64,000 bases of DNA, taken from contig ASMP01000001.1 in assembly GCA_000405225.1 (NCBI GenBank), positions 136,496 through 200,495 of the forward strand, given 5' to 3'. A program made the position numbers and the translations under genes. Below are positions 5,174-56,881 of the stretch, piece after piece. Within the stretch, counting starts at the first letter, position 1; the number at the start of each line of letters is the position of its first letter. The DNA is from Nanoarchaeota archaeon SCGC AAA011-D5 (GTDB lineage Archaea > Nanobdellota > Nanobdellia > Pacearchaeales > GW2011-AR1). Under the pieces are notes generated by a model. That model worked only from the letters and a program-made list of their open reading frames with translations. It searched no databases and had not been told where the DNA came from.

Positions 5174-5782
5174 TTACTTCAAAATCTTACCAGTTTCCAG
5201 ATGCCACAGGTATAAATCAAGCTCCCCGAGGCCCAGATTTGTTTTTTCAGCAATTTTTTCCAGAACAGACTCAATTTCAAGATATTTTTTTTCTGTCAGT
5301 GTTTTTGGCTTTTCAGTTAATCCGTTTCTAACAAGAAAGTCAATTATATGGAAATCTATTATTGCATAATTACTGAAACCTATATTGCGCAGGAAATGAG
5401 ACGCTTCTTTCATTCCGAGGCCCTTTATGTTTTTAACAAGAGATTCCCTGATATTTTCATCTTTAAGGTTTATTTTTTTGAAGTTTTCCCTTGCTTCAAT
5501 GATAAACTTTGCCCTTGAATTTGGAAACCTATGTCCCAAACGAGTCAATAATTTAGATAACTGTTTCTCAGATAAATGCAAGAAACCGTCTCCAATTTCC
5601 TTCTGTATTTTTATTCCGCCTCGCGCATTGAAATTTGCAGTAAGAAGGCAGAAGCAGAGCTCCTTGAAAATTTCCTCATTGGATTTTGCACCCAAGTCCC
5701 CAAATTCTTTCATTCTTTGGGAAATTATTTTGCTAATAGAAGAAACTTTCAGCTGCTCAATTTTGAAAATTATCTCTTTCAT
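5174..5782 (-). CDS. ogg: 8-oxoguanine DNA glycosylase/lyase, archaeal Ogg2-like HhH-GPD enzyme
   Basis: GLGMKEASHFLRNIG hairpin-helix with Lys and downstream AIIDFHI Asp; about 200 aa; 4-nt overlap with nth. Confidence 0.65.
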   Translation of the reverse strand: MKEIIFKIEQLKVSSISKIISQRMKEFGDLGAKSNEEIFKELCFCLLTANFNARGGIKIQKEIGDGFLHLSEKQLSKLLTRLGHRFPNSRAKFIIEARENFKKINLKDENIRESLVKNIKGLGMKEASHFLRNIGFSNYAIIDFHIIDFLVRNGLTEKPKTLTEKKYLEIESVLEKIAEKTNLGLGELDLYLWHLETGKILK

Positions 5783-6399
5783 CTTATTTTTCTGATGTTT
5801 TCAATGATTTTATCTTTTTGTTTCCTGCTTGTATGGGTTTTTCCAAAACGCACAAGAGTTAAATTAATTTTGTTCCAGTATTTTTTAGGGAATAGTCTCC
5901 TTAGCTCTTCCTCTACTTTATGGGGGTTTTTATTCCTTGCCCAGCCAAGTTTTCTTGAGATATAAAAAACATGCGTGTCAACAGGAAGCGCATCTTTTCC
6001 CTGTTCGGCTAAAAAAACATTTGCAGTCTTTCTTCCAACACCCGGAAGCGAAAGCAGCGCCTCAAAATCATAAGGAACTTTACCTTTGAAATTTTTAACC
6101 AGATATTGAGAGCATTTAATGATGTTCTTAGCCTTAGTCTTATAAAAGTTTACAGGCCTTATTATCTTGCTGATATTCTTTATCTTTCCTTTAGCCAGCT
6201 TCTGGGGATTCTTGTATTTTTCAAATAATTTTTCTGCTACAGGAATTGTTGTCTCGTCCCTGGTTCTCGCAGAAAGAATTGTTGATATAAGAATTTCATA
6301 GTCATTTTTCCAGTCTTCAGCAGCCAGACGCATGGGTCTTCCAAGCCCGGCAAGTTCTTTTAACTGTTTCATAGCTGTTTTTGTGTCCATTTTAAACAT
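5779..6399 (-). CDS. nth: endonuclease III-like DNA glycosylase without the C-terminal 4-Cys cluster
   Basis: ILSARTRDETT, LPGVGRKTANVFL (catalytic Lys), VDTHV (Asp); C-terminus has no Cys residues. Confidence 0.8.
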   Translation of the reverse strand: MFKMDTKTAMKQLKELAGLGRPMRLAAEDWKNDYEILISTILSARTRDETTIPVAEKLFEKYKNPQKLAKGKIKNISKIIRPVNFYKTKAKNIIKCSQYLVKNFKGKVPYDFEALLSLPGVGRKTANVFLAEQGKDALPVDTHVFYISRKLGWARNKNPHKVEEELRRLFPKKYWNKINLTLVRFGKTHTSRKQKDKIIENIRKIR

Positions 6400-6413
6400 A
6401 ATTTAAATCAAAA

Positions 6414-6426
6414 ACGCCCCGACCGA
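6414..6426 (-). repeat. copy A of the tRNA-Glu 3'-end core (plus-strand acgccccgaccga)
   Basis: 13/13 identity to the 3' end of both tRNA-Glu genes; lies between the toxin gene stop and the nth start. Confidence 0.8.
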
Positions 6427-6448
6427 ACTACGACAGGGCGTAGGACAT

Positions 6449-6772
6449 TTATGTAAATTTAAACAATTTTTCATAATCCTTATGATCCATCCAGTCAAGA
6501 ACTATGGCTAAAACTTCAACTTCATTATTTGTAATGGTATAAAGCAATCTCCAATCCTTTCTAAGATTATAAATCCAAAGATTATTTATATTATATCTCT
6601 GAATTAATTCTTTTGGAATTAGATTCTTTTTTACATTTCTTCCAAAGAAGGCATCTTGTCTTATTTTATTAAGAGCATTTTCTATTTCCTTAAAAAGTCT
6701 TTCATCTTCATCTTTTAGTCTCTCAAATGCTTCCTTCAAATCATTATCTGCGAAGATTACTTTGGATTCCAT
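6449..6772 (-). CDS. RelE/ParE-family toxin
   Basis: C-terminal LWIYNLRKDWRLLYTITNNEVEVLAIVLDWMDHKDYEKLF resembles the RelE/StbE pattern; 16-nt overlap with upstream partner. Confidence 0.6.
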   Translation of the reverse strand: MESKVIFADNDLKEAFERLKDEDERLFKEIENALNKIRQDAFFGRNVKKNLIPKELIQRYNINNLWIYNLRKDWRLLYTITNNEVEVLAIVLDWMDHKDYEKLFKFT

Positions 6773-7065
6773 TCCAGGTTTTTTCTATCTTTGTATTTTT
6801 TATATAATGCTGGATTCCAGATATAAACAACATATCCTTCATTATCATAAGCAATTTTTAATGTGCTTTCAAGGTATTCCATAATCACTTGAAAAGTTTG
6901 CCACATCACTTTTTTTGGTAGTTTATTAAAAAGCTCTGTTTTCTTGTAAGCACCAGAATTATCATCAATGAACTTTTCTACCATTAAAACAGTTTGAAGA
7001 GTTGGGCTTCTGGCTATCTCATTAGTTTCTGCATAAGTTTTCCTGCCCTTTATTTGCGGTTGCAT
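6757..7065 (-). CDS. putative antitoxin/partner of the RelE-like toxin
   Basis: Overlaps toxin start; start set to MQPQIK (7065) because a TTTATAAAG box lies about 25 nt upstream; no family recognised. Confidence 0.4.
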   Translation of the reverse strand: MQPQIKGRKTYAETNEIARSPTLQTVLMVEKFIDDNSGAYKKTELFNKLPKKVMWQTFQVIMEYLESTLKIAYDNEGYVVYIWNPALYKKYKDRKNLEWNPK

Positions 7066-7133
7066 TATAGTATCAATTGATATGACTTTATAAATCTTTT
7101 TCTTTTTCACCTATCTTTAACCTGAAGTTATAG

Positions 7134-7144
7134 CGCCCCGACCG
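7134..7144 (-). repeat. copy B of the tRNA-Glu 3'-end core (cgccccgaccg)
   Basis: 11-nt match at the boundary between the lipoprotein unit and the toxin-antitoxin unit. Confidence 0.6.
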
Positions 7145-7202
7145 TAACCAGTATAAAGTTTTACGGGTTAGGTACAATAAGGTGTAAGAAAGAAGTTTAG
7201 AT

Positions 7203-7733
7203 TTATTTTTTCTTTGTTTTGTTTGCAGAATCTAAATCTTTAAAATAAACTTCAGCAGCAACCAAATATCCTTCTACCCTAATGCTATTAACTTCTTGGA
7301 TATTATACTTTCCACTATTTACTATAGCCTCTAATCTTGGGTTAATCTCCTCTTGTATATTATTCAAGTGATTTTTATCACTATGAATAAAAATAACTCT
7401 TAATCTTGTATTATCACAATCTTCATCTTCAGCTACACTATACTTAACTTCCGCTAAAGTTAAATAAACATCTGAATAAGCAGTCTTAACAGAAATAATA
7501 TTATATCCTCCCCTATTGATAACATTTTCCAGTTTCTCTCTAATCTCCTTTTGTTGATTATTCCAGTGATTTTTATCACTGGTTATTGTCATAATCCTGA
7601 CGTTTTTTCCATCCTTTATAGTTTGACAAAAAACATTTTTTTGTTGTGTTGTTATAGTATCTTGACCACATCCAGAAAAAGCAAGTGCTCCTCCCAGAAC
7701 CAATGCAGCTAAAGTATTCTTTATTTTTCCCAT
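7203..7733 (-). CDS. lipoprotein with an internal two-fold domain repeat
   Basis: Signal peptide plus lipobox-like AFSGCG; repeated segments ITSDKNHWNNQQKEI...GGYNI and IHSDKNHLNNIQEEI...GKYNI. Confidence 0.6.
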   Translation of the reverse strand: MGKIKNTLAALVLGGALAFSGCGQDTITTQQKNVFCQTIKDGKNVRIMTITSDKNHWNNQQKEIREKLENVINRGGYNIISVKTAYSDVYLTLAEVKYSVAEDEDCDNTRLRVIFIHSDKNHLNNIQEEINPRLEAIVNSGKYNIQEVNSIRVEGYLVAAEVYFKDLDSANKTKKK

Positions 7734-7758
7734 AAATTATTTAAAAATTCTCTCTTTT

Positions 7759-7809
7759 TAAACTTTATGGTTTTGTGTTACTTTCAAGTTAAGACACGCC
7801 CCGACCGAG
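7759..7809 (-). repeat. copy C: tRNA-Glu 3'-end core (7796-7809) plus 38-nt trailer/promoter module (7759-7796)
   Basis: Core 14/14 identical; trailer 37/38 identical to 8302-8339 next to the real tRNA. Confidence 0.85.
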
Positions 7810-7865
7810 TGTGTATCAAAAGTGATACAAGCCCCAGATATTTAGAAAAGTTTAGAGAAGTAAAT

Positions 7866-8276
7866 CTAATGAATAATCTCTATATCATCTGGATCAACAA
7901 TTCCCAATCTATCAGAATTAAATAATTCTTCACCTGAAATCCTTCTCTTTAACCTCAATGGAAATCTTATTTTTGTTCCAATTTCAATAGTTGCTGCGAG
8001 ATTGTACGCTGTGTGGGATCCTGAACTTCCAGACATATCGTCTACATCCACCTCAATTGTATAAATCCCCTGTGGTGTTTCGACTCTTAATCCATAATTT
8101 GGATTTCCTAATTTAACTGACTCGTTTCCGAATAATGCTCCACTTGATTCTTCAATTCTTGAAATATTCCCATATTCACTAAGAACTCTTCCTTCCACAA
8201 AATTTTCAGGTTTTATTCCACAACCAACCACACCCAATGTCCCAGCCAAAATAAGGCTTGTTAATATTTTTCTCAT
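7866..8276 (-). CDS. small lipoprotein
   Basis: Signal peptide and LGVVGCG lipobox-like Cys; unrelated in sequence to the neighbouring lipoprotein. Confidence 0.6.
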   Translation of the reverse strand: MRKILTSLILAGTLGVVGCGIKPENFVEGRVLSEYGNISRIEESSGALFGNESVKLGNPNYGLRVETPQGIYTIEVDVDDMSGSSGSHTAYNLAATIEIGTKIRFPLRLKRRISGEELFNSDRLGIVDPDDIEIIH

Positions 8277-8341
8277 AAATTTTTGATGAGTTTCCTATTT
8301 ATAAACTTTATGGTTTTATGTTACTTTCAAGTTAAGACAAA

Positions 8342-8459
8342 CGCCCCGACCGAGATTCGAACTCGGGTCACGGCCGTGCTTCATCGCTTCGCTCTGAATC
8401 AAACGTCAAAGCGTTGCCATTTGAGAGGGCCGCATTCTTGGCCTCTGAACTATCGGGGC
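8342..8459 (-). tRNA. tRNA-Glu(CUC) with a 45-nt intron after position 37
   Basis: Hand-folded: GCCCCGA/TCGGGGC acceptor, D arm GTTC..GAAT, anticodon stem CGGCC/GGCCG, loop CTCTCA[intron]C, T arm CCGAG TTCGAAT CTCGG; exons nearly identical to the intronless UUC isoacceptor. Confidence 0.85.
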
Positions 8460-8460
8460 T

Positions 8461-8505
8461 TTGCTCCGGAGTTCTGGTCATTCAAGACCCATGAACTATC
8501 GGGGC
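8461..8505 (-). other. orphan tRNA-Glu 5' fragment directly upstream of tRNA-Glu(CUC)
   Basis: GCCCCGATAGTTCA (14/14) then a diverged D loop and GAATG, followed by the palindrome CTCCGGAG; no matching 3' half adjacent. Confidence 0.5.
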
Positions 8506-8643
8506 TTTTATATTTTAATGAGAAGAAGATTGATATTTAAATTTTTGTTAGTGTTACAAATTTTAATTTAATCTTAATTGTTTTTATATTTATATAGGCA
8601 TATTTACATCAAAAATTCCTTCTTCTTCAGAAAAAAATCAGGC

Positions 8644-8898
8644 TTACTTCACAAGGGAGACGGCATCGTTGGGCCTGACTTTTTCAGGGACTTTTATGCC
8701 TATGTGGTCGCCTTTCTTTGCCGCTTTTACAGCAGTTCTTTCTATCTGCATGCTTCCGACCTTGACCTCAACGTCAGTTGTGTGGCCCTTTATATGGATC
8801 TTGTCTCCAACCTTTAAGCCAGAGGAAAGCTTTATGGCAGCAACCCCGACATGGCTAAAGTAACCCGAAATTCTTCCGATTTCTTTTTCATCCGCCAT
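8644..8898 (-). CDS. small beta-barrel protein resembling EF-Tu domain 2
   Basis: 84 aa; GDKIHIKGHTTDVEVKVGSMQIERTAVKAAKKGDHIGIKV resembles translation-factor domain II. Confidence 0.5.
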   Translation of the reverse strand: MADEKEIGRISGYFSHVGVAAIKLSSGLKVGDKIHIKGHTTDVEVKVGSMQIERTAVKAAKKGDHIGIKVPEKVRPNDAVSLVK

Positions 8899-9002
8899 GA
8901 TTTACCTAAGAGGCAGGGATATTTAAATTTAGTGTTGGTTATCTGGTTATCCATGTCTTAAATCCTAATAATGCTTAAATATGCAAAACACCTGTAAAAT
9001 TA

Positions 9003-9161
9003 ATGGAAAGTGAAGCCGAATGTAAGAAATGCAAAGGAACAAGAAGAATCAGGGATAAAGACGGAACAGTTCATGTTTGCTATGACTGCCTTGAAAAAGG
9101 CAAGATGGACCAGCACGATAAAAACCCGAAAACAGCAGCAGATTACAGGATAAAATTATAA
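9003..9161 (+). CDS. small zinc-ribbon protein (52 aa)
   Basis: Not in track; hand translation MESEAECKKCKGTRRIRDKDGTVHVCYDCLEKG... with CxxC...CxxC. Confidence 0.4.
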   Translation: MESEAECKKCKGTRRIRDKDGTVHVCYDCLEKGKMDQHDKNPKTAADYRIKL

Positions 9162-9217
9162 TTCCTCTCACAACTTCGCTCATTCTAGTTAGACAATTGC
9201 TTCGCGAAATTGCTCGA

Positions 9218-9290
9218 TAGCCCTGCCAGGATTCGAACCTGGGTCTAAGGCGCCAGAGGCCTTCATACTTGACCGCTATACTACAGGGCT
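9218..9290 (-). tRNA. tRNA-Gln(CUG)
   Basis: Hand-folded 73 nt: A1-U72 acceptor AGCCCTG/CAGGGCT, anticodon stem AAGGC/GCCTT, loop CTCTGGC, T arm CCAGG TTCGAAT CCTGG. Confidence 0.85.
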
Positions 9291-9411
9291 TTTATACAAA
9301 TTAGACAGATTCAGCAAGTTTAAAAGATTTTACAACAAGTATTTTGACGCATACCGCCATAATGTCTAACTCGTTAAATTTATATTCATATTCTTCCATT
9401 ATTATAGCAAG

Positions 9412-9870
9412 ATGATATGGAAAACGCATCTGGCAATAGGGCTTGCCGTTGCACTTTATTTTTTAAGTCATGTAAATAAGCCCATGATATTTTTTCCAGT
9501 CGTTCTGGCCTCCAGTTTTTTTCCAGATATAGATTCAAAGTTTTCTTATATAGGAAAAAAGGCATTATCCAGGCCAGTTCAGTGGACTGTTTCTCACAGG
9601 GGAATAATTCACAGTTATACCCTATGTATTGTCCTTTCACTTCTCATAGCTTTTTTTTATCCTGTTTTTGCTCTCCCGTTTTTTTTGGGATATAGCTCCC
9701 ATCTTTTTGCAGACAGTTTTACCGTTCAAGGAATAAAACCTTTTTGGCCCCTCAAGGCTGTTTCCAAAGGGCCTGTAATCACAGGAGGAAAGATAGACAG
9801 GGTTATTTTTTATACTTTTGTTCTGATAGATGCGGTCTTTCTCGGGACAGTACTTTACAATTTGTTTTAG
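9412..9870 (+). CDS. membrane-bound metal-dependent hydrolase, YdjM/DUF457-like
   Basis: Multi-TM; N-terminal THLAIG, DIDS, HRGIIHS motifs. Confidence 0.6.
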   Translation: MIWKTHLAIGLAVALYFLSHVNKPMIFFPVVLASSFFPDIDSKFSYIGKKALSRPVQWTVSHRGIIHSYTLCIVLSLLIAFFYPVFALPFFLGYSSHLFADSFTVQGIKPFWPLKAVSKGPVITGGKIDRVIFYTFVLIDAVFLGTVLYNLF

Positions 9871-9916
9871 ATTTCAGATTAGAAAAATTTTTATATACAA
9901 ACATCTTTCATCTTGA

Positions 9917-10204
9917 ATGAATATGATATTAATCATTGTAATAGCTGCCCTGCTGCTTATTTATCTTGGACTTAAATGGAATAACATAAGAACGAAAATT
10001 GCCTTCTTTTTTATACTCTTTGGATTCCTGTTCTTGTTATTAATCTTCTTTGTGATCAGCGGACGCCTGGATTATTCAGCAATAGGGCAGACCTCTTCAT
10101 CCATAAAAGGCTATTTTCTGACTGTTAAAGGGCTTGCCGTAAATGTTTTTGAAGCTACAGGAAGGATAATAGGCCGCCTGAATGCGGGGAGCTCAACCGG
10201 TTGA
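9917..10204 (+). CDS. small membrane protein
   Basis: Two hydrophobic helices; first of three consecutive small membrane ORFs. Confidence 0.4.
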   Translation: MNMILIIVIAALLLIYLGLKWNNIRTKIAFFFILFGFLFLLLIFFVISGRLDYSAIGQTSSSIKGYFLTVKGLAVNVFEATGRIIGRLNAGSSTG

Positions 10205-10208
10205 AAAA

Positions 10209-10406
10209 ATGAAAATCCAAATGATTATAATAAAATTCCTGATTCTTGGAGCATTATTCATAATAAGCAACCAGAATCTTCACCTTGGAATTTTGCAGGA
10301 AAGGGAACTTTTTTTTGATACCTATCTGGGATGGGTTACAAACATAGCAAGCCAAATCCTGGATGTCACAGGGTACGTGATAAAATTCCAGTGGCTTCCC
10401 AAGTAA
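10209..10406 (+). CDS. small membrane protein
   Basis: Start set to MKIQMII just after the previous stop; one TM helix. Confidence 0.35.
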   Translation: MKIQMIIIKFLILGALFIISNQNLHLGILQERELFFDTYLGWVTNIASQILDVTGYVIKFQWLPK

Positions 10407-50857: not shown

Positions 50858-51025
50858 TATTAATATTGAAGACAGAAGGTAAGATTAAATTAGGAGAGTA
50901 AGTATTAATTCTTAAATAGTTACAGAATAGAGGGAATGTTAAGTATTCGGGAGATGAATAAGGTGTTAAGGGGCGGGAGTTAGGAGTTTAATAATATTTT
51001 TAAGTAAGGTTAGTTTAGGTTATTT

Positions 51026-53485
51026 ATGCACGAATTACAAAAGATTAACACTCTTGGACTTGAAAATATTAACTATGCTATTGTTGAGAAAACTCGCCCT
51101 ATGATGTATAAGGCGATGAAATATTGGGGCAAAAAACCAAGTAACATTTTCAAAGATTATATTAAACATTATTCTAATAAAAATGAGATAGTTCTTGACG
51201 CTTTTGCGGGTAGCGGTGTTTGTCCTTTGGAAGCAATACAAACAGGCAGAAAGGCAGTAGCAGTTGATTTAAATCCAATTTCGGGTTTTATAACAAAGAT
51301 GTTGGCTACCCCCTTAAATATCTCAAAATTTAGGGAAGAATGGGTTAAAGTTAAAGCAGACTTTTGTAAGTTTGAAAAAGGAGCAGAATTATTTTTAACA
51401 ACTTGCCCAAAGTGTAAAAAACAGGCAAGGATAATTAATGTTCATTATGATGGAAGCCCAACAGAAATAAGATATAAATGTTCTTGTGAAAAAAAGAACG
51501 GAACCAAAAAAATAGATGATAATGATTTAACATTAATAGAGAAAGCAAATAAAACTAAAATAAGTTTTTGGTATCCAAAGGACAAATTTCCGAATACAGA
51601 CACTTTTGATGGGGCAAAAAAGAATGTAGGGGATTATTTCTATAATCTATGGACTAAAAGAAGTTTGTATTCTCTTGCGTATATGTTTAATAGAATTAAT
51701 GATATAAAAGATGAGAAATTAAAAGAGTTTTTCAAATTTGCATTTATTTCTATGCTTCATCTATCAACTAAAATGGTTTCTGCAAGAAGAGAAAAAAGTG
51801 AAAGACCAGATAGCGGAAGTTGGGGCAGACCTGCATATTTATTTCCAAAAAGGCATTTAGAACAAAATCCCTTTTTACTATTTGAGAGAGCAATAGACGA
51901 TAGACAAGGTATCGTAAAGGCAAAAGAAAGTTCAAATGAACTTTTAGATAATAAAACAAAATTTGCAAAGAATTTTGAAGATTTAAAAGATAATGATAAA
52001 AATTTGTTAATTTTGAAAAGAAACTCTATTGAACTATCTAAATTTATTCCAAATGAGAGTATAGATTTTGTTTTAACAGACCCGCCATACGGGGGATTAA
52101 TAAAATATTTTGATTTGAGTTCTATTTGGTCTATATGGTTAAAGGGTGAAGAGCAAAATAAAGAGTTTGATATTCCCTATGATGAAGAAATAACTCTTGA
52201 TAAAAAAAGAGATTTTGATTATTATGATAAAATGTTGTATAAAGCATTTTCAGAAGTTAATAAAATATTAAAGACTAATAGATACTTAATAGTTACATTC
52301 CATAATTCACAGCCAAGAATATTTAATTCAATTATGAAGTCTTGCGTTAATGCGGGATTTGTTCTTGAAGAAATCTTATTTCAACAAAATAAAAGGGCTT
52401 CTGAAAGTGGTGTTGCCAATCCGTGGGGGACAGCAATAAGCGATTTTTATTTAAGATTTAGAAAACCAACAAAAGAAGAGAAGAAGATTGAGGGATTAAA
52501 TAGAGATGGATTTGAAAAACTTGTTGTTAATTCTGCTAAAATTGTTCTTGCAAAAAGGGGACAGCCCAGCGAATTATACAATATTTTAAGCGGGGTTTAT
52601 ATGGAATTATACAAATACGGACAATATCTTAAAGCAGATACAACAGAAGATATTGCAGACATCTTAAAAAAAAGAATTGGAAAAGAATTTGTTTTAGTTG
52701 AAGCAGATGAAGAAAACATAAAAAAGGGAAAAAGATGGTGGTTTAGTGAAGAGGAAAAAAGAAAGCATAAATTAGAAACTCCCCTGTCTGATAGAATTGA
52801 AACTGCAATAATCCAAACATTCCACGATAAAATAAAAATTTCCTATGATGATATACTACAAACACTTTTTGTAGAATTTCCAAATTCATATACGCCTGAT
52901 AATAGTAGTATAAACAATTTAATAAAAGAATATGGAACTAAACAGAAAGATGGAACTTGGATGTTAAAGAGTAGTTTCAAAAAAGACGAAAGTAAGCATA
53001 TTGTTATTGAAAGAATTTTAGCAGAGATAGGAAAAAAACTTGGCTATAAAATTTGGTGTCCTGATAAGGGAAGAGATAATAGACTTCAAGAATTATGTGA
53101 AAGTCGTCTCGGTTTTGACTTTGAGGGCAAAGAAAGGGTTGAAAAAATAGATATTCTTTGGTTTAAAGAGGATAAGATTTATTATGCTTTTGAAGTTGAA
53201 AATTCTACTTCAATAACCTCTGCTTTAGAGAGATGTTCTAATTTACCAAATGGGGAAGATACTAAAAAAATGATTTTGATACCAAGTGAGAGAGCAAAAT
53301 TTCTTAATAGAAAAATAAAAGAACCTATGTTTAAAGAGAGATTTATTTTAGATAAATGGCGTGTTGCTTCTTATGAAGAATTAGAAAAACTATCAAATAA
53401 GAAAAGTATAAGTGAAGAAGACTTTGATTTGATTTTTTCACAAGCCCTAAAAATAAAAGAGGGCATCCAATCTAAACTTTTCTGA
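51026..53485 (+). CDS. Zn-ribbon adenine-type DNA methyltransferase (COG1743-like) fused to a C-terminal nuclease-like domain
   Basis: KYWGKKPSNI...VLDAFAGSGVCPLEA...AVDLNPIS (motif X/I), CPKCKK...CSCEKK ribbon, TDPPYGGLIKYFDLSSIWSIWL (motif IV); C-terminal IDILWF...YAFEVENSTS PD-(D/E)xK-like segment. Confidence 0.7.
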   Translation: MHELQKINTLGLENINYAIVEKTRPMMYKAMKYWGKKPSNIFKDYIKHYSNKNEIVLDAFAGSGVCPLEAIQTGRKAVAVDLNPISGFITKMLATPLNISKFREEWVKVKADFCKFEKGAELFLTTCPKCKKQARIINVHYDGSPTEIRYKCSCEKKNGTKKIDDNDLTLIEKANKTKISFWYPKDKFPNTDTFDGAKKNVGDYFYNLWTKRSLYSLAYMFNRINDIKDEKLKEFFKFAFISMLHLSTKMVSARREKSERPDSGSWGRPAYLFPKRHLEQNPFLLFERAIDDRQGIVKAKESSNELLDNKTKFAKNFEDLKDNDKNLLILKRNSIELSKFIPNESIDFVLTDPPYGGLIKYFDLSSIWSIWLKGEEQNKEFDIPYDEEITLDKKRDFDYYDKMLYKAFSEVNKILKTNRYLIVTFHNSQPRIFNSIMKSCVNAGFVLEEILFQQNKRASESGVANPWGTAISDFYLRFRKPTKEEKKIEGLNRDGFEKLVVNSAKIVLAKRGQPSELYNILSGVYMELYKYGQYLKADTTEDIADILKKRIGKEFVLVEADEENIKKGKRWWFSEEEKRKHKLETPLSDRIETAIIQTFHDKIKISYDDILQTLFVEFPNSYTPDNSSINNLIKEYGTKQKDGTWMLKSSFKKDESKHIVIERILAEIGKKLGYKIWCPDKGRDNRLQELCESRLGFDFEGKERVEKIDILWFKEDKIYYAFEVENSTSITSALERCSNLPNGEDTKKMILIPSERAKFLNRKIKEPMFKERFILDKWRVASYEELEKLSNKKSISEEDFDLIFSQALKIKEGIQSKLF

Positions 53486-54293
53486 AATTAAGGATATATT
53501 GATGATGATGATTTATTTTGTAAGCATAGGGGTAACCAAAAGGATATAATGGTTTGCTATTTTGCATTAAGACCACAGACCCAGAAAATTCAAAACCTAT
53601 TTTTTGCATTAACTTAATAACATCTCCGTGAGCATTAGTTTCTTTTTTCTTGACTGTGAAATCGCTTATAATTATTGAGCAGTATTTATTTTCTCTTAAT
53701 CTTTTATAAACTTCTTTCATAATTTTCCCAAATAAGACTAAAAAATCACTATAAGATTTTTGATTTCCTACATCATCAGGATATTCGGAATAATATTCAA
53801 CCCCCTGCCTCCTTTGACTACCATCTGACCTTATGCCCATTCCCTTGTTTCTTAAAATATTGTGATAAGGCGGAGATGTTATACAATAATCAATTTTATC
53901 TATTTCAGGAATTTTCTTTAAGGAATTTCCTTTAATTATTTTAATATGCCCATTTATTTTTACCCCTAACTTTTTTAATCTTCTTTTTGCAAGTTCGCAA
54001 TATTTTTTACTTAAATCTATTCCTATGGCTTTTCTGTCTTCTAATGCAGAAGCGATTAAAGTTGTCCCACTACCCATAAAAGGGTCTAAAACCAGCATAT
54101 CCCTCTTCGTAAATAATCTTATTAATTTTCTTATGTCTTTTATAAGAAATGGAGCAGGATGTTCAAATGCGTCTTTATCTTCCGCACATCTTTCACTAAT
54201 CCAAACACTTTTAGTTAGTTGTAACCATTCCTTTCCTGTCAGATTATTTATTTTATTTCTTTTGTCGTATTTTCCTTTCATTTTTCTTAACAT
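53472..54293 (-). CDS. SPPY-type (N4-cytosine-like) DNA methyltransferase, motif I before motif IV
   Basis: HPAPFLIKDI...VLDPFMGSGTT and CITSPPYHNI; start uncertain (ATG at 54320, 54293 or 54281); 14-nt convergent overlap with the 819-aa gene. Confidence 0.75.
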   Translation of the reverse strand: MLRKMKGKYDKRNKINNLTGKEWLQLTKSVWISERCAEDKDAFEHPAPFLIKDIRKLIRLFTKRDMLVLDPFMGSGTTLIASALEDRKAIGIDLSKKYCELAKRRLKKLGVKINGHIKIIKGNSLKKIPEIDKIDYCITSPPYHNILRNKGMGIRSDGSQRRQGVEYYSEYPDDVGNQKSYSDFLVLFGKIMKEVYKRLRENKYCSIIISDFTVKKKETNAHGDVIKLMQKIGFEFSGSVVLMQNSKPLYPFGYPYAYKINHHHQYILNFRKV

Positions 54294-54420
54294 AATTTTT
54301 AGTAAATTTAGAAAGAACATCTGTTGCAGTGGTATCTAATTCAAGACAAATCATCTTGAACTTTTTCCAAACATCATCTTCTATGTAAAAATTATGGGGT
54401 CTTTTCTTATCCCTTTTCAT
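54253..54420 (-). CDS. ribbon-helix-helix protein (55 aa), candidate controller of the methylase
   Basis: Not in track; MKRDKKRPHNFYIEDDVWKKFKMICLELDTTATDVLSKFTKNYVKK...; overlaps the methylase start. Confidence 0.5.
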   Translation of the reverse strand: MKRDKKRPHNFYIEDDVWKKFKMICLELDTTATDVLSKFTKNYVKKNERKIRQKK

Positions 54421-54490
54421 ATATAATCAAAAGAATGGTAATTTATAAAACTTCTCTCCCTCTCTCCGTCTCTCCAAAGTAGTTATAGAA

Positions 54491-54628
54491 TTATTTGCCT
54501 TTCTTCAAATTCTCTTTAATGATTTTCTCTAACCAATCAGAAATATCTATCTTCTGCCTTATGCAGAATATTTTAACGTCTTCCCATAGTTGAGGACTAA
54601 CCTTAATGCTTGTTGTCTTCCTTTCCAT
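54491..54628 (-). CDS. ribbon-helix-helix protein (45 aa)
   Basis: Not in track; MERKTTSIKVSPQLWEDVKIFCIRQKIDISDWLEKIIKENLKKGK. Confidence 0.5.
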   Translation of the reverse strand: MERKTTSIKVSPQLWEDVKIFCIRQKIDISDWLEKIIKENLKKGK

Positions 54629-54726
54629 AGAGTATTATGGTATTATTGCTTTATAAACATTTATATTCAGTATTATATACTACCCAATTACTATAAGTTT
54701 AAATACTATCAGTATTATAGTAGTAT

Positions 54727-55014
54727 ATGGATAGCACACAAGACATTAAGCAATTCTCAAATACAAGAGAGCAAAGGGCAAGAGCCATATTAGAGATAGG
54801 AAACCCTGAAACTCTTGACGAATTTACCTATTTAGTTCCCTCTCAAAATTCAGACAGAAAATATAGGGTTACGCATATAGACGCTTATAGTTGCGAATGT
54901 GAAGACTTTAAGAGAAGATGTCAGGGAAAAAATCTTTATTGTAAGCACATAAAGGCAATAATTCTATTCCAAAGAATTAAGCAGAAATATGAAGTCAAGC
55001 CAGAAGTAGAGTAA
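54727..55014 (+). CDS. SWIM zinc-finger protein
   Basis: YSCECEDFKRRCQGKNLYCKHIKA (CxC...CxH). Confidence 0.55.
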   Translation: MDSTQDIKQFSNTREQRARAILEIGNPETLDEFTYLVPSQNSDRKYRVTHIDAYSCECEDFKRRCQGKNLYCKHIKAIILFQRIKQKYEVKPEVE

Positions 55015-55911
55015 GAAATAGAGTTAATCATAGACACGCCACAAAAGGACTTATGCCCTGAATGTAATTCTGAAAATCTGATTAAATCAGGGATTAGAAA
55101 AACAAAGATAGGCACAAAGCAAAGATATGAATGTAGGAATTGTCATAAGAGGTTTGTATTAAGTCCAATAAAGAACATAAAAGGCAACACTAAATTAGTT
55201 TGTCTTGCTATGGATTGTTATTATCGTGGTTTGTCTTATAGAGATATAAGCCATCAATTTAATCAGTTCTATGGTTTAAAGATTTCACACGTTACAATAA
55301 GGGAATGGGTTTTGAGATTTTCAAGAGTTATGGAAAAATACTCTGAAACAATAAAGCCACAGATTAAAGGAACTTGGAACGCAGACGAAACTTTGGTTTT
55401 AACAAAGCGTGGAAAGAATAAGCAAAATACCAACTTTGATTATGTCTGGAATGTTATGGATAATAAAAGCAAATTCCTTTTAGCGTCTGAATGTTCAGGG
55501 CGTTCAAGAAGTTCAAAAGACGCACAGAAAGTTATGACAGAAGCATATCAACAAAACGGAAAAATCCCATTTCAGATAATTGTTGATGGTTACGCTGGTT
55601 ATCAAGATGGAGTTAGAAAGACATTTAGGAATTGGGGTAACGAAAGAAAGGTTAAATTTACATCAATTAAAGGGCATAGGAAAGAGATAAACAATAACGC
55701 AATAGAAAGCCATCACTCACATCAAAAGGAATTTCAGAAAGTAAGGCGTGGAATAACAAAGGTTCAGGATTATCAAGATGGCTTTAAGGTATTCCATAAC
55801 TTTGTAAGAAAGAACGCAAGACAGGGCTTAACTCCTGCGGATAAGGTTGGAGTTGGAGTAAAAGGAAACGCTTGGGAAACTATGCTCTTGAAAGGGTTGA
55901 AATCATCTTAA
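55015..55911 (+). mobile_element. IS6-family-like DDE transposase with N-terminal zinc ribbon; first ATG only at 55210, inside the conserved HTH
   Basis: CPEC...CRNC ribbon, HTH LSYRDISHQF...HVTIREWV, DDE context WNADETLV / IIVDGYAGY / NNNAIESHHSHQKE. In frame with the SWIM ORF across the TAA at 55012-55014. No terminal inverted repeats found. Confidence 0.65.
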
Positions 55912-56041
55912 CTTTCTTAACCTTCTTATTATGTTTCTTATTTCTACAATATCCCTACGATTAATTTTTTCTGAATGAGCAATCCTATTTCTTCTTTCAA
56001 TAAATAGTCTTTTTAATATTTCTCTTTCAATATCTTTCCTA

Positions 56042-56401
56042 TTACTTCTTTTTCTTATTACCATTATCTATTCCAAAACTCATATCTAAAATAGTAGTCA
56101 ATTCCCGATTGGAAATTTTCTCTTCTACGAGTTCATTATTTAATTTTTCAGTTTTATCTTCAAGTTCTTTCATTAAATCTGAATATTCTTTTTTTATTAC
56201 TTCTTCTGCATAATAATTACCAATTATATAAATCGCAGGGAGCACTATGACTTCTATGCTTAAAAACAAAACAGCATTATCTGGATAAAAACGACTTAAC
56301 CCAATAAATGTTACTGCTGTAAGAGTTGCAATTATGGTAACCCAAATTCTTATTCTAAGCATTCCCATAATTTCAATAATCTCTTTAATATATTTAAACA
56401 T
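56042..56401 (-). CDS. two-TM membrane protein with coiled-coil tail
   Basis: 119-aa ORF with hydrophobic helices followed by a charged helical C-terminus. Confidence 0.4.
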   Translation of the reverse strand: MFKYIKEIIEIMGMLRIRIWVTIIATLTAVTFIGLSRFYPDNAVLFLSIEVIVLPAIYIIGNYYAEEVIKKEYSDLMKELEDKTEKLNNELVEEKISNRELTTILDMSFGIDNGNKKKK

Positions 56402-56521
56402 TACTTATAACTCCCGCAACTTAACAGAAGAGGAGAAAACGACTATAACTCCCTAATTCCTAACACACTACAGAATAGAAAGATTTATTAACACTTCATT
56501 TACTGAATAATATTAAGTAAA

Positions 56522-56881
56522 ATGGATAGAAAAAATATTATAATTGCATTATCACATCATCAAGATATACAAAAAGATGTTGATGCTTTAGTATTTAGAA
56601 TAGCTGGAATTGGAAAAAGAAATCCAATGATTGACAGACTTCAAGAAGTAATTGATGCTGAGGAAAAAGTAATCAACTTTATTAAAGATTCTAAAGAAAT
56701 TTGGGAAGATACAAATAGAGTGAGATTATATGCTTCCGCGTCTCTAAAAGATTATCTTATTTCTTTTAAAGAATATGAAAGATTATGGGCTTCAAGAAAA
56801 AACGAAGGAACTCCAGAAAAAGATTGGTATAAAATGCAGGATGAATTAGTTAAATATATTCGCAATTATTCTTTTAGATAA
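56522..56881 (+). CDS. hypothetical protein
   Basis: 119-aa ORF; no motif. Confidence 0.4.
   Translation: MDRKNIIIALSHHQDIQKDVDALVFRIAGIGKRNPMIDRLQEVIDAEEKVINFIKDSKEIWEDTNRVRLYASASLKDYLISFKEYERLWASRKNEGTPEKDWYKMQDELVKYIRNYSFR

Follow-up and report, generated by a model that had tools for sequence, protein, structure and literature searches.

A probable IS6-like cargo transposon in a nanoarchaeal genome with a reversed-order Type IIC restriction-modification system as its candidate cargo

The window analysed here is a stretch of 64,000 nucleotides (nt) from Nanoarchaeota archaeon SCGC AAA011-D5 (GenBank contig ASMP01000001.1, positions 136,496 to 200,495), and all positions below are counted from its first letter unless another locus is named. 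We consider it probable, taking the two parts together, that positions 50932-56471 (5.5 kb), which follow gyrA, are one unit transposon of an IS6-related family, and that its cargo is a restriction-modification (R-M) system of Type IIC with reversed domain order. The central cargo gene, at 51026-53485 on the plus strand, encodes a fusion protein of 819 amino acids (aa) composed of an N6_N4 methylase, tandem winged helices and an NmeDI_C nuclease-like domain, and from its sequence this protein probably both methylates and cuts DNA. An earlier note on the same DNA had read the block as an accessory island with defence and mobility functions, including a methylase-nuclease fusion. That reading is right in kind, but it overlooked that the entire block forms one transposon, and the island borders it gave, 50973-56417, move outwards to 50932 and 56471.

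The first clue to these borders came from a repeat search, which found an imperfect, GC-rich inverted repeat with its arms at 50964-50987 and 56403-56426. Each end of the element contains two copies of the pattern TGTTARG-N4-5-GGGAG. At the left end (50932-50979, plus strand) they occupy 50937-50953 and 50964-50979, with starts 27 nt apart; at the right end (56408-56471, minus strand) they are inverted and occupy 56408-56426 and 56449-56465, with starts at 56426 and 56465, 39 nt apart. These two left and two inverted right copies are the only four in the 547-kb genome, where a reversed-pattern control gives none, and they are putative transposase-binding sites. Directly outside the element stands the 8-bp target-site duplication AGAATAGA, at 50924-50931 on the left and at 56472-56479 on the right, where 4 nt (AAGA) separate it from TTTATTAA, the TATA-like box that belongs to the gene at 56522-56881. 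The left duplication lies within the left copy of an exact direct repeat of 10 bp (ACAGAATAGA, 50922-50931), which occurs in the 64-kb window only at 50922 and 56470 (chance expectation 0.12).

Three sibling elements with related transposases share this organization, each bracketed by a perfect 8-bp duplication: L005 (span 5247-10320, duplication TAAAATAA) carries the R-M cassette, L097 (1551-5417, AGGAATAG) carries four unknown genes, and L099 (3886-8530, CTAAAACG) carries other unknown genes. The eight ends of the four elements align in the order flank, about 5 nt, outer site, spacer and inner site, and at every right end the spacer between the sites is 12 nt longer. L005, which represents the L005-L007 cassette, has a perfect 25-nt inverted repeat plus the inner pair, with spacings of 27 and 39 nt, and L097 has the same 39-nt right-end spacing as the window and L005. 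It is because the window element is read in register with these siblings that we set it at 50932-56471 with the duplication AGAATAGA. Three observations weigh against so simple a picture. The terminal sequences outside the repeats differ at the two ends of the window element (GGGAA versus GTAGTG), the direct repeat around it is 10 bp and not 8 bp, and one related locus, L001, keeps degenerate left repeats but has neither a transposase nor a right end.

L001 belongs to the cassette closest to that of the window (L001-L004 and L032), which is 86% identical at the DNA level over window positions 50937-54467, starting 5 nt inside the left end. Since it lacks the transposase and the right end, cassettes must also move or persist outside the element, and the cassette indeed occurs both in live-looking elements and as a stranded remnant. 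Between the window and L005, the R-M cassettes are 74% identical in DNA and the transposases 38% identical in protein sequence, and the end sequences have diverged.

The same remnant would also suit a very different account, in which the island came by another route and the TGTTARG...GGGAG repeats are ribbon-helix-helix (RHH) operators for the R-M gene and the divergent membrane-protein gene. The inner left repeat stands directly upstream of the TATA-like box of the R-M gene, inner repeats directly precede the gene starts at both 51026 and 56401, degenerate left repeats persist in L001 without any transposase, and the transposase of the window element is broken. We regard this account as very improbable, since the three siblings combine related transposases with the same two-plus-two ends at spacings of 27-28 and 39 nt, have perfect 8-bp duplications around different cargo, and the exact 10-bp direct repeat brackets the repeats of the window.

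The transposase gene of the element (54727-55911, plus strand) is IS6-like, with SWIM, zinc-ribbon, helix-turn-helix (HTH) and DDE parts in one frame that is interrupted by a single in-frame TAA at 55012-55014. The earlier note had seen a SWIM/IS6 module here; the mobility functions are present, not as two genes but as one transposase gene split by this stop. The open reading frames (ORFs) on its two sides cover the SWIM part (54727-55014) and the DDE part (55210-55911), and the zinc ribbon falls between the stop and the next ATG. When the stop is read through, the protein aligns over its full length, including the zinc ribbon, with the intact 421-aa transposase P0046 (38% identity, E 2e-94). 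It scores 35.5 bits with PF13610 (cut-off 27), 20.2 with SWIM and 86.6 with the NCBIfam model transpos_IS6 (equivalog cut-off 125). The family comprises more than 600 clusters (600 at E 1e-10), mostly of about 390-420 aa; its few named members come from DPANN archaea (Woesearchaeota, Nanoarchaeota), Marsarchaeota and unclassified archaea, and some are annotated as IS1 or IS6 family transposase. Given the premature TAA, the window copy is probably immobile unless helped in trans.

The insertion point falls in promoter-like sequence between gyrA and the native gene that follows, with a TATA-like box 4 nt downstream of it, and in all four elements A/T-rich boxes lie 3-5 nt from a duplication. Joining the flanks gives the 25-mer AAATAGTTACAGAATAGAAAGATTTA, for which we found one uninterrupted metagenome copy (L096, 8732-8756) upstream of an unrelated gene, and near-copies of the target (ACAAAATAGAAAGATTTA and longer) stand upstream of many places in this genome. 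The L096 copy was considered as a true empty allele and rejected for its unrelated context; because of that context and because near-copies recur, we read the target as a promoter word typical of the lineage and not as an empty allele. This word, (A/G)TAGTAACAAAATAGAAAGATTTA, is found with 1-4 mismatches at many places in the genome and, within the window, at 50914-50931 and 56470-56487; for a conserved promoter consensus of this lineage it is unusually long.

The first gene beyond the right end (56522-56881, plus strand) is outside the element: nucleotide identity to its uninterrupted homologue in the relative G005 begins at 56479, the last base of the duplication. G005 was rejected as a strict empty site, as its downstream gene is uninterrupted but stands in a different neighbourhood. 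The gene encodes 119 aa, has a GC content of 0.275 and has a homologue in one of 60 relatives, the G005 gene just mentioned (79% identity); its match to a closterovirus coat protein family in Pfam (25.8 bits, cut-off 21.3) is probably spurious.

Composition and synteny both set the block apart from its host. In 1-kb windows between 51 and 57 kb, GC content is 0.27-0.34, against about 0.37 in the rest of the window. The transposon as a whole has a GC content of 0.305, compared with 0.373 for the genome (entire 547-kb assembly as background; standard deviation among 1-kb windows 0.037), and 3.8% of the genome's 1-kb windows fall below the value of the element. At the level of genes, the R-M fusion (0.296) and the second methylase (0.293) are lower than gyrA and the downstream surface-protein gene (both 0.384). 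The AT-rich character that the earlier note had ascribed to the block after gyrA is thus borne out by calculation, and every ORF of the defence and mobility set that it had described between gyrA and aIF2-gamma was found at its place.

The gene for the 819-aa protein was absent from all 60 related genomes searched (36 of them congeneric), the best match being one 27%-identical methylase in one genome, and in none of the 60 did we see the same genes in the same place. In the genus, gyrA lies next to aIF2-gamma, with 0.9-2.3 kb between them in seven congeners and 7.4 kb here. In the closest relative, G009, only 75 nt separate gyrA from the homologue of the window's 393-aa surface protein; in this genome the distance is 6.1 kb. 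As the gene is missing from all 60 relatives and the synteny between gyrA and aIF2-gamma is broken, the block after gyrA is an acquired accessory island. The interval between gyrA and aIF2-gamma is a recurrent hotspot for insertions: two congeners have different inserts there (G006:C3:16200-24400, locus L027, and G011:C3:2400-8000, locus L028), and that of G006 encodes a RelE-like/RHH pair, a protein of 271 aa resembling Cas4/RecB and a peptidase-like protein of 517 aa. The match to gyrA itself is split at about residue 130 in seven relatives (G002, G003, G006, G011, G015, G021 and G023), whose frames run to 1087-1280 aa, which suggests a gyrA intein that is missing from the 817-aa gyrA of the window.

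Within the cargo, the methylase half of the fusion is the part most firmly placed. All five motifs quoted earlier for the protein (VLDAFAGSG, DLNP, TDPPYGG, IDILWF and YAFEVENSTS) are present in the 819-aa ORF, and the methylase motifs follow the alpha order: motif I (FAGSG, residues 60-64), an insert of about 260 residues containing a Cys4 ribbon (127-154), and motif IV (DPPY, 352-355). Accordingly split is the match to PF01555, at residues 32-83 and about 340-460. The PADLOC model MTase_II covers residues 32-454 (E 1.6e-42); PglXI matches partially, over profile positions 325-607 of 919 (E 3.7e-46), and DUF1156 models match at E 1e-9 to 1e-11. In an alignment of 41 sequences reaching down to 31% identity, D58, G62 and G64 of motif I and D352, P353, P354 and Y355 of motif IV are invariant, as are the zinc-ribbon cysteines C127, C130 and C152, and C154 is nearly so. 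An AlphaFold model of the whole protein has a pLDDT of 85 and a pTM of 0.78, and a Foldseek search with this complete model returned methylase folds only. Matches from PADLOC, NCBIfam and Pfam uphold the description of the N-terminal half as a COG1743-like zinc-ribbon methylase, which would be of the adenine type.

The remainder of the protein is less uniform than the earlier note supposed when it called the C-terminal 300 or so residues nuclease-like: residues of about 493-647 form two winged helices in the model, with tandem modules as the best Foldseek matches in the Protein Data Bank (PDB; Rpc5 tWHD2, E 2.8e-3), and the nuclease-like character is confined to the last 170 or so residues. 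There, over residues of about 649-790, the model runs through a helix (H658), a strand, an insert, a strand from D709, a strand E723-V-E725, a helix (T728, R736), a strand and a helix, which as modelled is the element order of a restriction-endonuclease core. H658, D709, E725, T728 and R736 are invariant in the same 41 sequences, and E723, N726 and S738 are nearly so. PF27126 (NmeDI_C, E at most 1e-5) is recorded in the precomputed Pfam annotation of relatives on P0001 and 43 others, and P0001 is 91% identical to the protein of the window overall and 94% identical over residues 470-819. Furthermore, the C-terminal domain aligns (E 4e-19) with plasmid proteins of 421-442 aa that NCBI annotates as type II restriction endonuclease, and shares with them the H, ID.LW, FEVE.ST and R positions. 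From these sequence features the domain is a predicted nuclease, so that, at the domain level, the methylase and endonuclease that together define Type IIC occur in one chain, a single 819-aa frame.

Convergent with the fusion gene, and overlapping it by exactly 14 nt, is the companion methylase M2 (53472-54320, minus strand), whose longest ORF is 282 aa; its true start, judged from relatives, is likely to be M14 at 54281 or M10 at 54293. M2 matches PF01555 (E 5e-30) and has its motif I (DPFMGSG) followed by SPPY, and alignment to the beta-class structure TTHA0409 shows its circular permutation, so that the convergent permuted SPPY methylase described earlier is confirmed in both position and type. 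Among its nearest relatives of known structure are N4-cytosine as well as N6-adenine enzymes. M2 is 64-85% identical to its counterparts in three other cassettes and, at 63-85% across the family loci, better conserved than the winged-helix and nuclease parts of the fusion, which are about 40% identical at the same distance.

Two small genes precede M2. RHH1 (54253-54420, minus strand) encodes a 55-aa ribbon-helix-helix-like protein, overlaps the M2 start, and is kept beside M2 in L001 (59% identity) and L005 (43%). Its profile matches the ribbon-helix-helix protein 56B of SIRV1 (5.6e-4) and ParG (0.027). In the search for an Xre-type HTH controller of the C-protein kind, RHH1 gave only RHH matches (ParG, SIRV 56B and RHH_10). 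RHH2 (54491-54628, minus strand) encodes a 45-aa paralogue-like protein and is divergent from the transposase gene; it is 22% identical to RHH1, shares a W..K..C pattern with it, matches RHH_4 weakly (E 0.11) and was found in no other cassette of the 58-locus family scan described below. Both genes reported in front of M2 are thus real as ORFs, and RHH1 is part of the conserved cassette, but their identity as RHH proteins comes from matches below curated thresholds. In the promoter region of RHH1 and M2, a candidate operator (54441-54480, minus strand) has three GGAGAG(A) repeats, read on the gene strand, beside a TTTTATAAATT box, and a AATTTATAAAACTT-CTCTCC...CTCTCC block beside a TATA-like box is common to three cassettes. 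From its position alone, RHH1 is probably the controller of the cassette.

The fusion is far from rare. Searched against 1.84 billion proteins at E 0.001, the profile of the nuclease domain retrieves 1599 clusters (50% identity), many of whose full-length members measure about 800 aa, and a scan of species genomes yielded 58 loci, nearly all of which, where not cut by a contig end, have the order methylase, winged helix, nuclease. The hosts are DPANN archaea, Nitrosopumilus, Methanosarcinales, candidate-phyla-radiation bacteria, Omnitrophota, Acidobacteria, Planctomycetota and Haemophilus paracuniculus CCUG 43573. The earlier suggestion that the fusion might be something new is therefore not sustained, given the size of the family (58 loci, 1599 clusters) and the precedent for its domain order in BtgZI (PMC4081073).

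Of the 58 loci, 23 have a full-length M2 homologue as the immediate neighbour of the fusion. Among these 23 are almost all the loci whose fusion has a methylase half at least about 48% identical to that of the window, and also two distant ones (35-36%), those of Haemophilus paracuniculus (L085) and of a Methylococcaceae metagenome-assembled genome (L084); the other distant fusion loci are solitary. M2 is convergent with the fusion in the archaeal loci except L038, and in tandem with it in L038 and in all bacterial loci. The Haemophilus locus (L085, 2985-6325) consists of a tandem 821-aa fusion and 287-aa SPPY methylase, the fusion being 33% identical to that of the window over its full length and lacking the zinc-ribbon cysteines. 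On a Nitrosopumilus-like 2.2-Mb contig (L009, 9830-13381), the R-M pair adjoins a Gabija-like pair of an OLD-family TOPRIM ATPase and a UvrD helicase, a neighbour that places it in a defence island. A truncated variant, P0044 (L100/L101, 5001-6806), is 601 aa long, is 84% identical to the protein of the window through residue 559 and then ends, without the second winged helix, the nuclease or an adjacent M2. It is encoded on a 38.5-kb contig of small same-strand ORFs with weak virus-type matches (homing endonuclease, virion structural protein). Possibly this variant is a methylase carried by a virus or plasmid as protection from the full enzyme.

Whether the C-terminal domain of the full-length fusion cuts DNA has to be weighed against a number of observations that speak the other way. 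A Foldseek search with residues 485-819 gave no significant nuclease: the winged helices dominate the result, nuclease matches stay at E 0.05-0.5, the best in the PDB being MUS81-EME1 (0.41) and N.BspD6I (0.48), the best in the viral library a cyanophage restriction endonuclease (0.054) followed by Mrr-type matches (0.29-0.42), and ERCC4 and MmcB are also among the non-significant ones. The nuclease-domain profile found no match in PDB sequences or in a Pfam copy that did not contain PF27126. A profile alignment (hhalign) with archaeal Hjc, built from relatives, was not significant (P 0.05), although it pairs D709 with the Hjc aspartate and E723-x-E725 with its E-x-K. The fold check that the earlier note had proposed for residues of about 480-819 thus brought out the winged helices and left the nuclease fold below significance. 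In addition, a glutamate stands where the canonical lysine would be (D...E-x-E), NCBI names members of the family simply DNA methyltransferase, and no methylase adjoins the stand-alone homologues found on alphaproteobacterial plasmids, which therefore add homology but not function and whose 'restriction endonuclease' label is no functional proof. We found neither a characterised member of the family nor biochemical data for any member in the literature.

Several of these points, namely the missing significant structure or profile match to a solved nuclease, the E-x-E in place of E-x-K and the NCBI label, would fit a protein that is only a DNA methyltransferase, with a dead or DNA-binding nuclease relic at its C-terminus, acting as an epigenetic or anti-restriction module; so would the 601-aa variant without a nuclease. 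We judge this unlikely, though it is the most serious of the alternatives. The pattern of invariant (H658, D709, E725, T728, R736) and nearly invariant (E723, N726, S738) residues fits a site under selection, and Pfam groups the domain with a restriction enzyme that has been characterised. A functional E-x-E motif is known from BamHI. Moreover, a dedicated second methylase that is tightly co-conserved with the fusion is the signature of a toxic partner, and the variant that has lost the nuclease is also the one without an adjacent M2.

The plasmid homologues without a methylase, a context usual for modification-dependent enzymes, would in turn suit a Type IV-like nuclease that attacks methylated foreign DNA, with some other role for the fused methylase. 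This is a faint possibility at most, as the nuclease of the family is always fused to an intact methylase, the closer subfamily adds a second one, and NmeDI is a classical Type II enzyme that is sensitive to methylation and has its own cognate methylase (PMC2095814).

On the preferred reading, that of a Type IIC R-M cassette, the fusion would recognise a probably asymmetric site through its zinc-ribbon and helical insert and its winged helices, and would methylate adenine on one strand. Unmodified DNA would be cut by the single PD-(D/E)xK-variant site, probably near the recognition site and after pairing of two molecules, and M2, as an N4-cytosine or N6-adenine methylase, would protect the host. 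RHH1 may control the cassette through the conserved GGAGAG repeats. Such a cassette could defend against viruses and, by post-segregational killing, stabilise the transposon that carries it.

The rest of the element is made up of small features. Near the right end, two overlapping ORFs on the minus strand (55903-56401) encode a 119-aa membrane protein (56042-56401) and a 53-aa basic peptide (55903-56064) with an R-x4-H stretch and weak matches (E 0.007-0.04) to the C-terminal portion of three HEPN families. They overlap within the A-rich run AAGAAAAAGAAG; a frameshift may have split a single membrane-HEPN gene here, or the run may be a slippage site. The spacer between RHH2 and the transposase gene (54629-54726) is very AT-rich, with AGTATTAT repeats.

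Among known mobile elements, the IS6/IS26 group is the natural comparison. The IS6 review describes 14-bp inverted repeats, 8-bp duplications and long clades that have a zinc finger or an additional domain at the N-terminus; just one of the members it lists carries a passenger gene (Varani et al. 2021, PMC7986276). The elements described here share with this group the DDE_Tnp_IS240 transposase, the 8-bp duplications and the terminal inverted repeats. However, whereas IS6/IS26 elements usually measure 0.8-1.8 kb, with one repeat of about 14 bp per end and no passengers, ours span 3.9-5.5 kb and carry 3-7 passengers, with two repeats per end and a SWIM domain at the transposase N-terminus. We found no description of such a SWIM/zinc-ribbon/DDE transposon family in the literature.

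Four elements with related transposases carry several genes each, and two of them hold the same R-M cassette, which shows a route by which defence genes travel among genome-reduced DPANN archaea, and an addictive cargo may help to keep a transposon in a genome of 0.5 Mb. We see about even chances for the broader proposition, taken as a whole, that there is a large family of IS6-derived archaeal unit transposons that insert upstream of TATA boxes and shuttle defence cassettes, and that the cassette shuttled here belongs to a reversed-order single-chain R-M family with no characterised member that extends from archaea to Pasteurellaceae.

For the cassette itself, the related zinc-ribbon methylase core of BREX type 3 PglXI and of DISARM (COG1743/DUF1156) raised the question of membership in these systems, which we rejected: DUF1156_antiphage reaches 43 bits where the cut-off is 1000, PglXI is covered over 283 of 919 positions, and the element contains no partner genes. 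The canonical Type IIG order of MmeI, Eco57I and BpuSI is not that of the 819-aa protein either. The pair of Eco57I and M.Eco57I (PMC4081073) resembles our cassette in having a bifunctional R-M chain and a separate methylase that completes protection, but Eco57I-type enzymes consist of an N-terminal nuclease, a gamma-class NPPY methylase and a specificity domain, whereas here a PF01555-type DPPY methylase is followed by winged helices and the predicted nuclease.

Closer at the C-terminus is R.NmeDI of Neisseria meningitidis, whose activity as a Type II endonuclease is proven and which cleaves on either side of its recognition site, at some distance from it (PMC2095814). It shares the C-terminal Pfam family PF27126, through the record on close relatives of the 819-aa protein, but, compared by description, it is a stand-alone protein of 351 aa with a separate C5 methylase and a Vsr gene, whereas here the domain is fused behind an amino-methylase.

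Nearly all Type IIC enzymes have an N-terminal nuclease and a gamma-class methylase, the exception named being BtgZI (PMC4081073, Pingoud, Wilson and Wende 2014). BtgZI (GCGATG 10/14) combines an N-terminal alpha-class methylase with a C-terminal PD-(D/E)xK variant (PMC4081073) and thus, in a comparison by description and not by sequence, has the same single chain with the methylase first and the nuclease last. Its variant has Q for E, whereas the 819-aa family has E for K, plus the Cys4 zinc ribbon and the two winged helices. What emerges is a compact and widespread R-M architecture, with a PF01555-type methylase first and an NmeDI-type nuclease last, for which BtgZI is the one domain-order precedent found. 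As recognition, methylation and cleavage would all reside in one chain, members could yield new specificities for enzyme discovery, and the homologue in cultured Haemophilus paracuniculus opens the family to direct testing.

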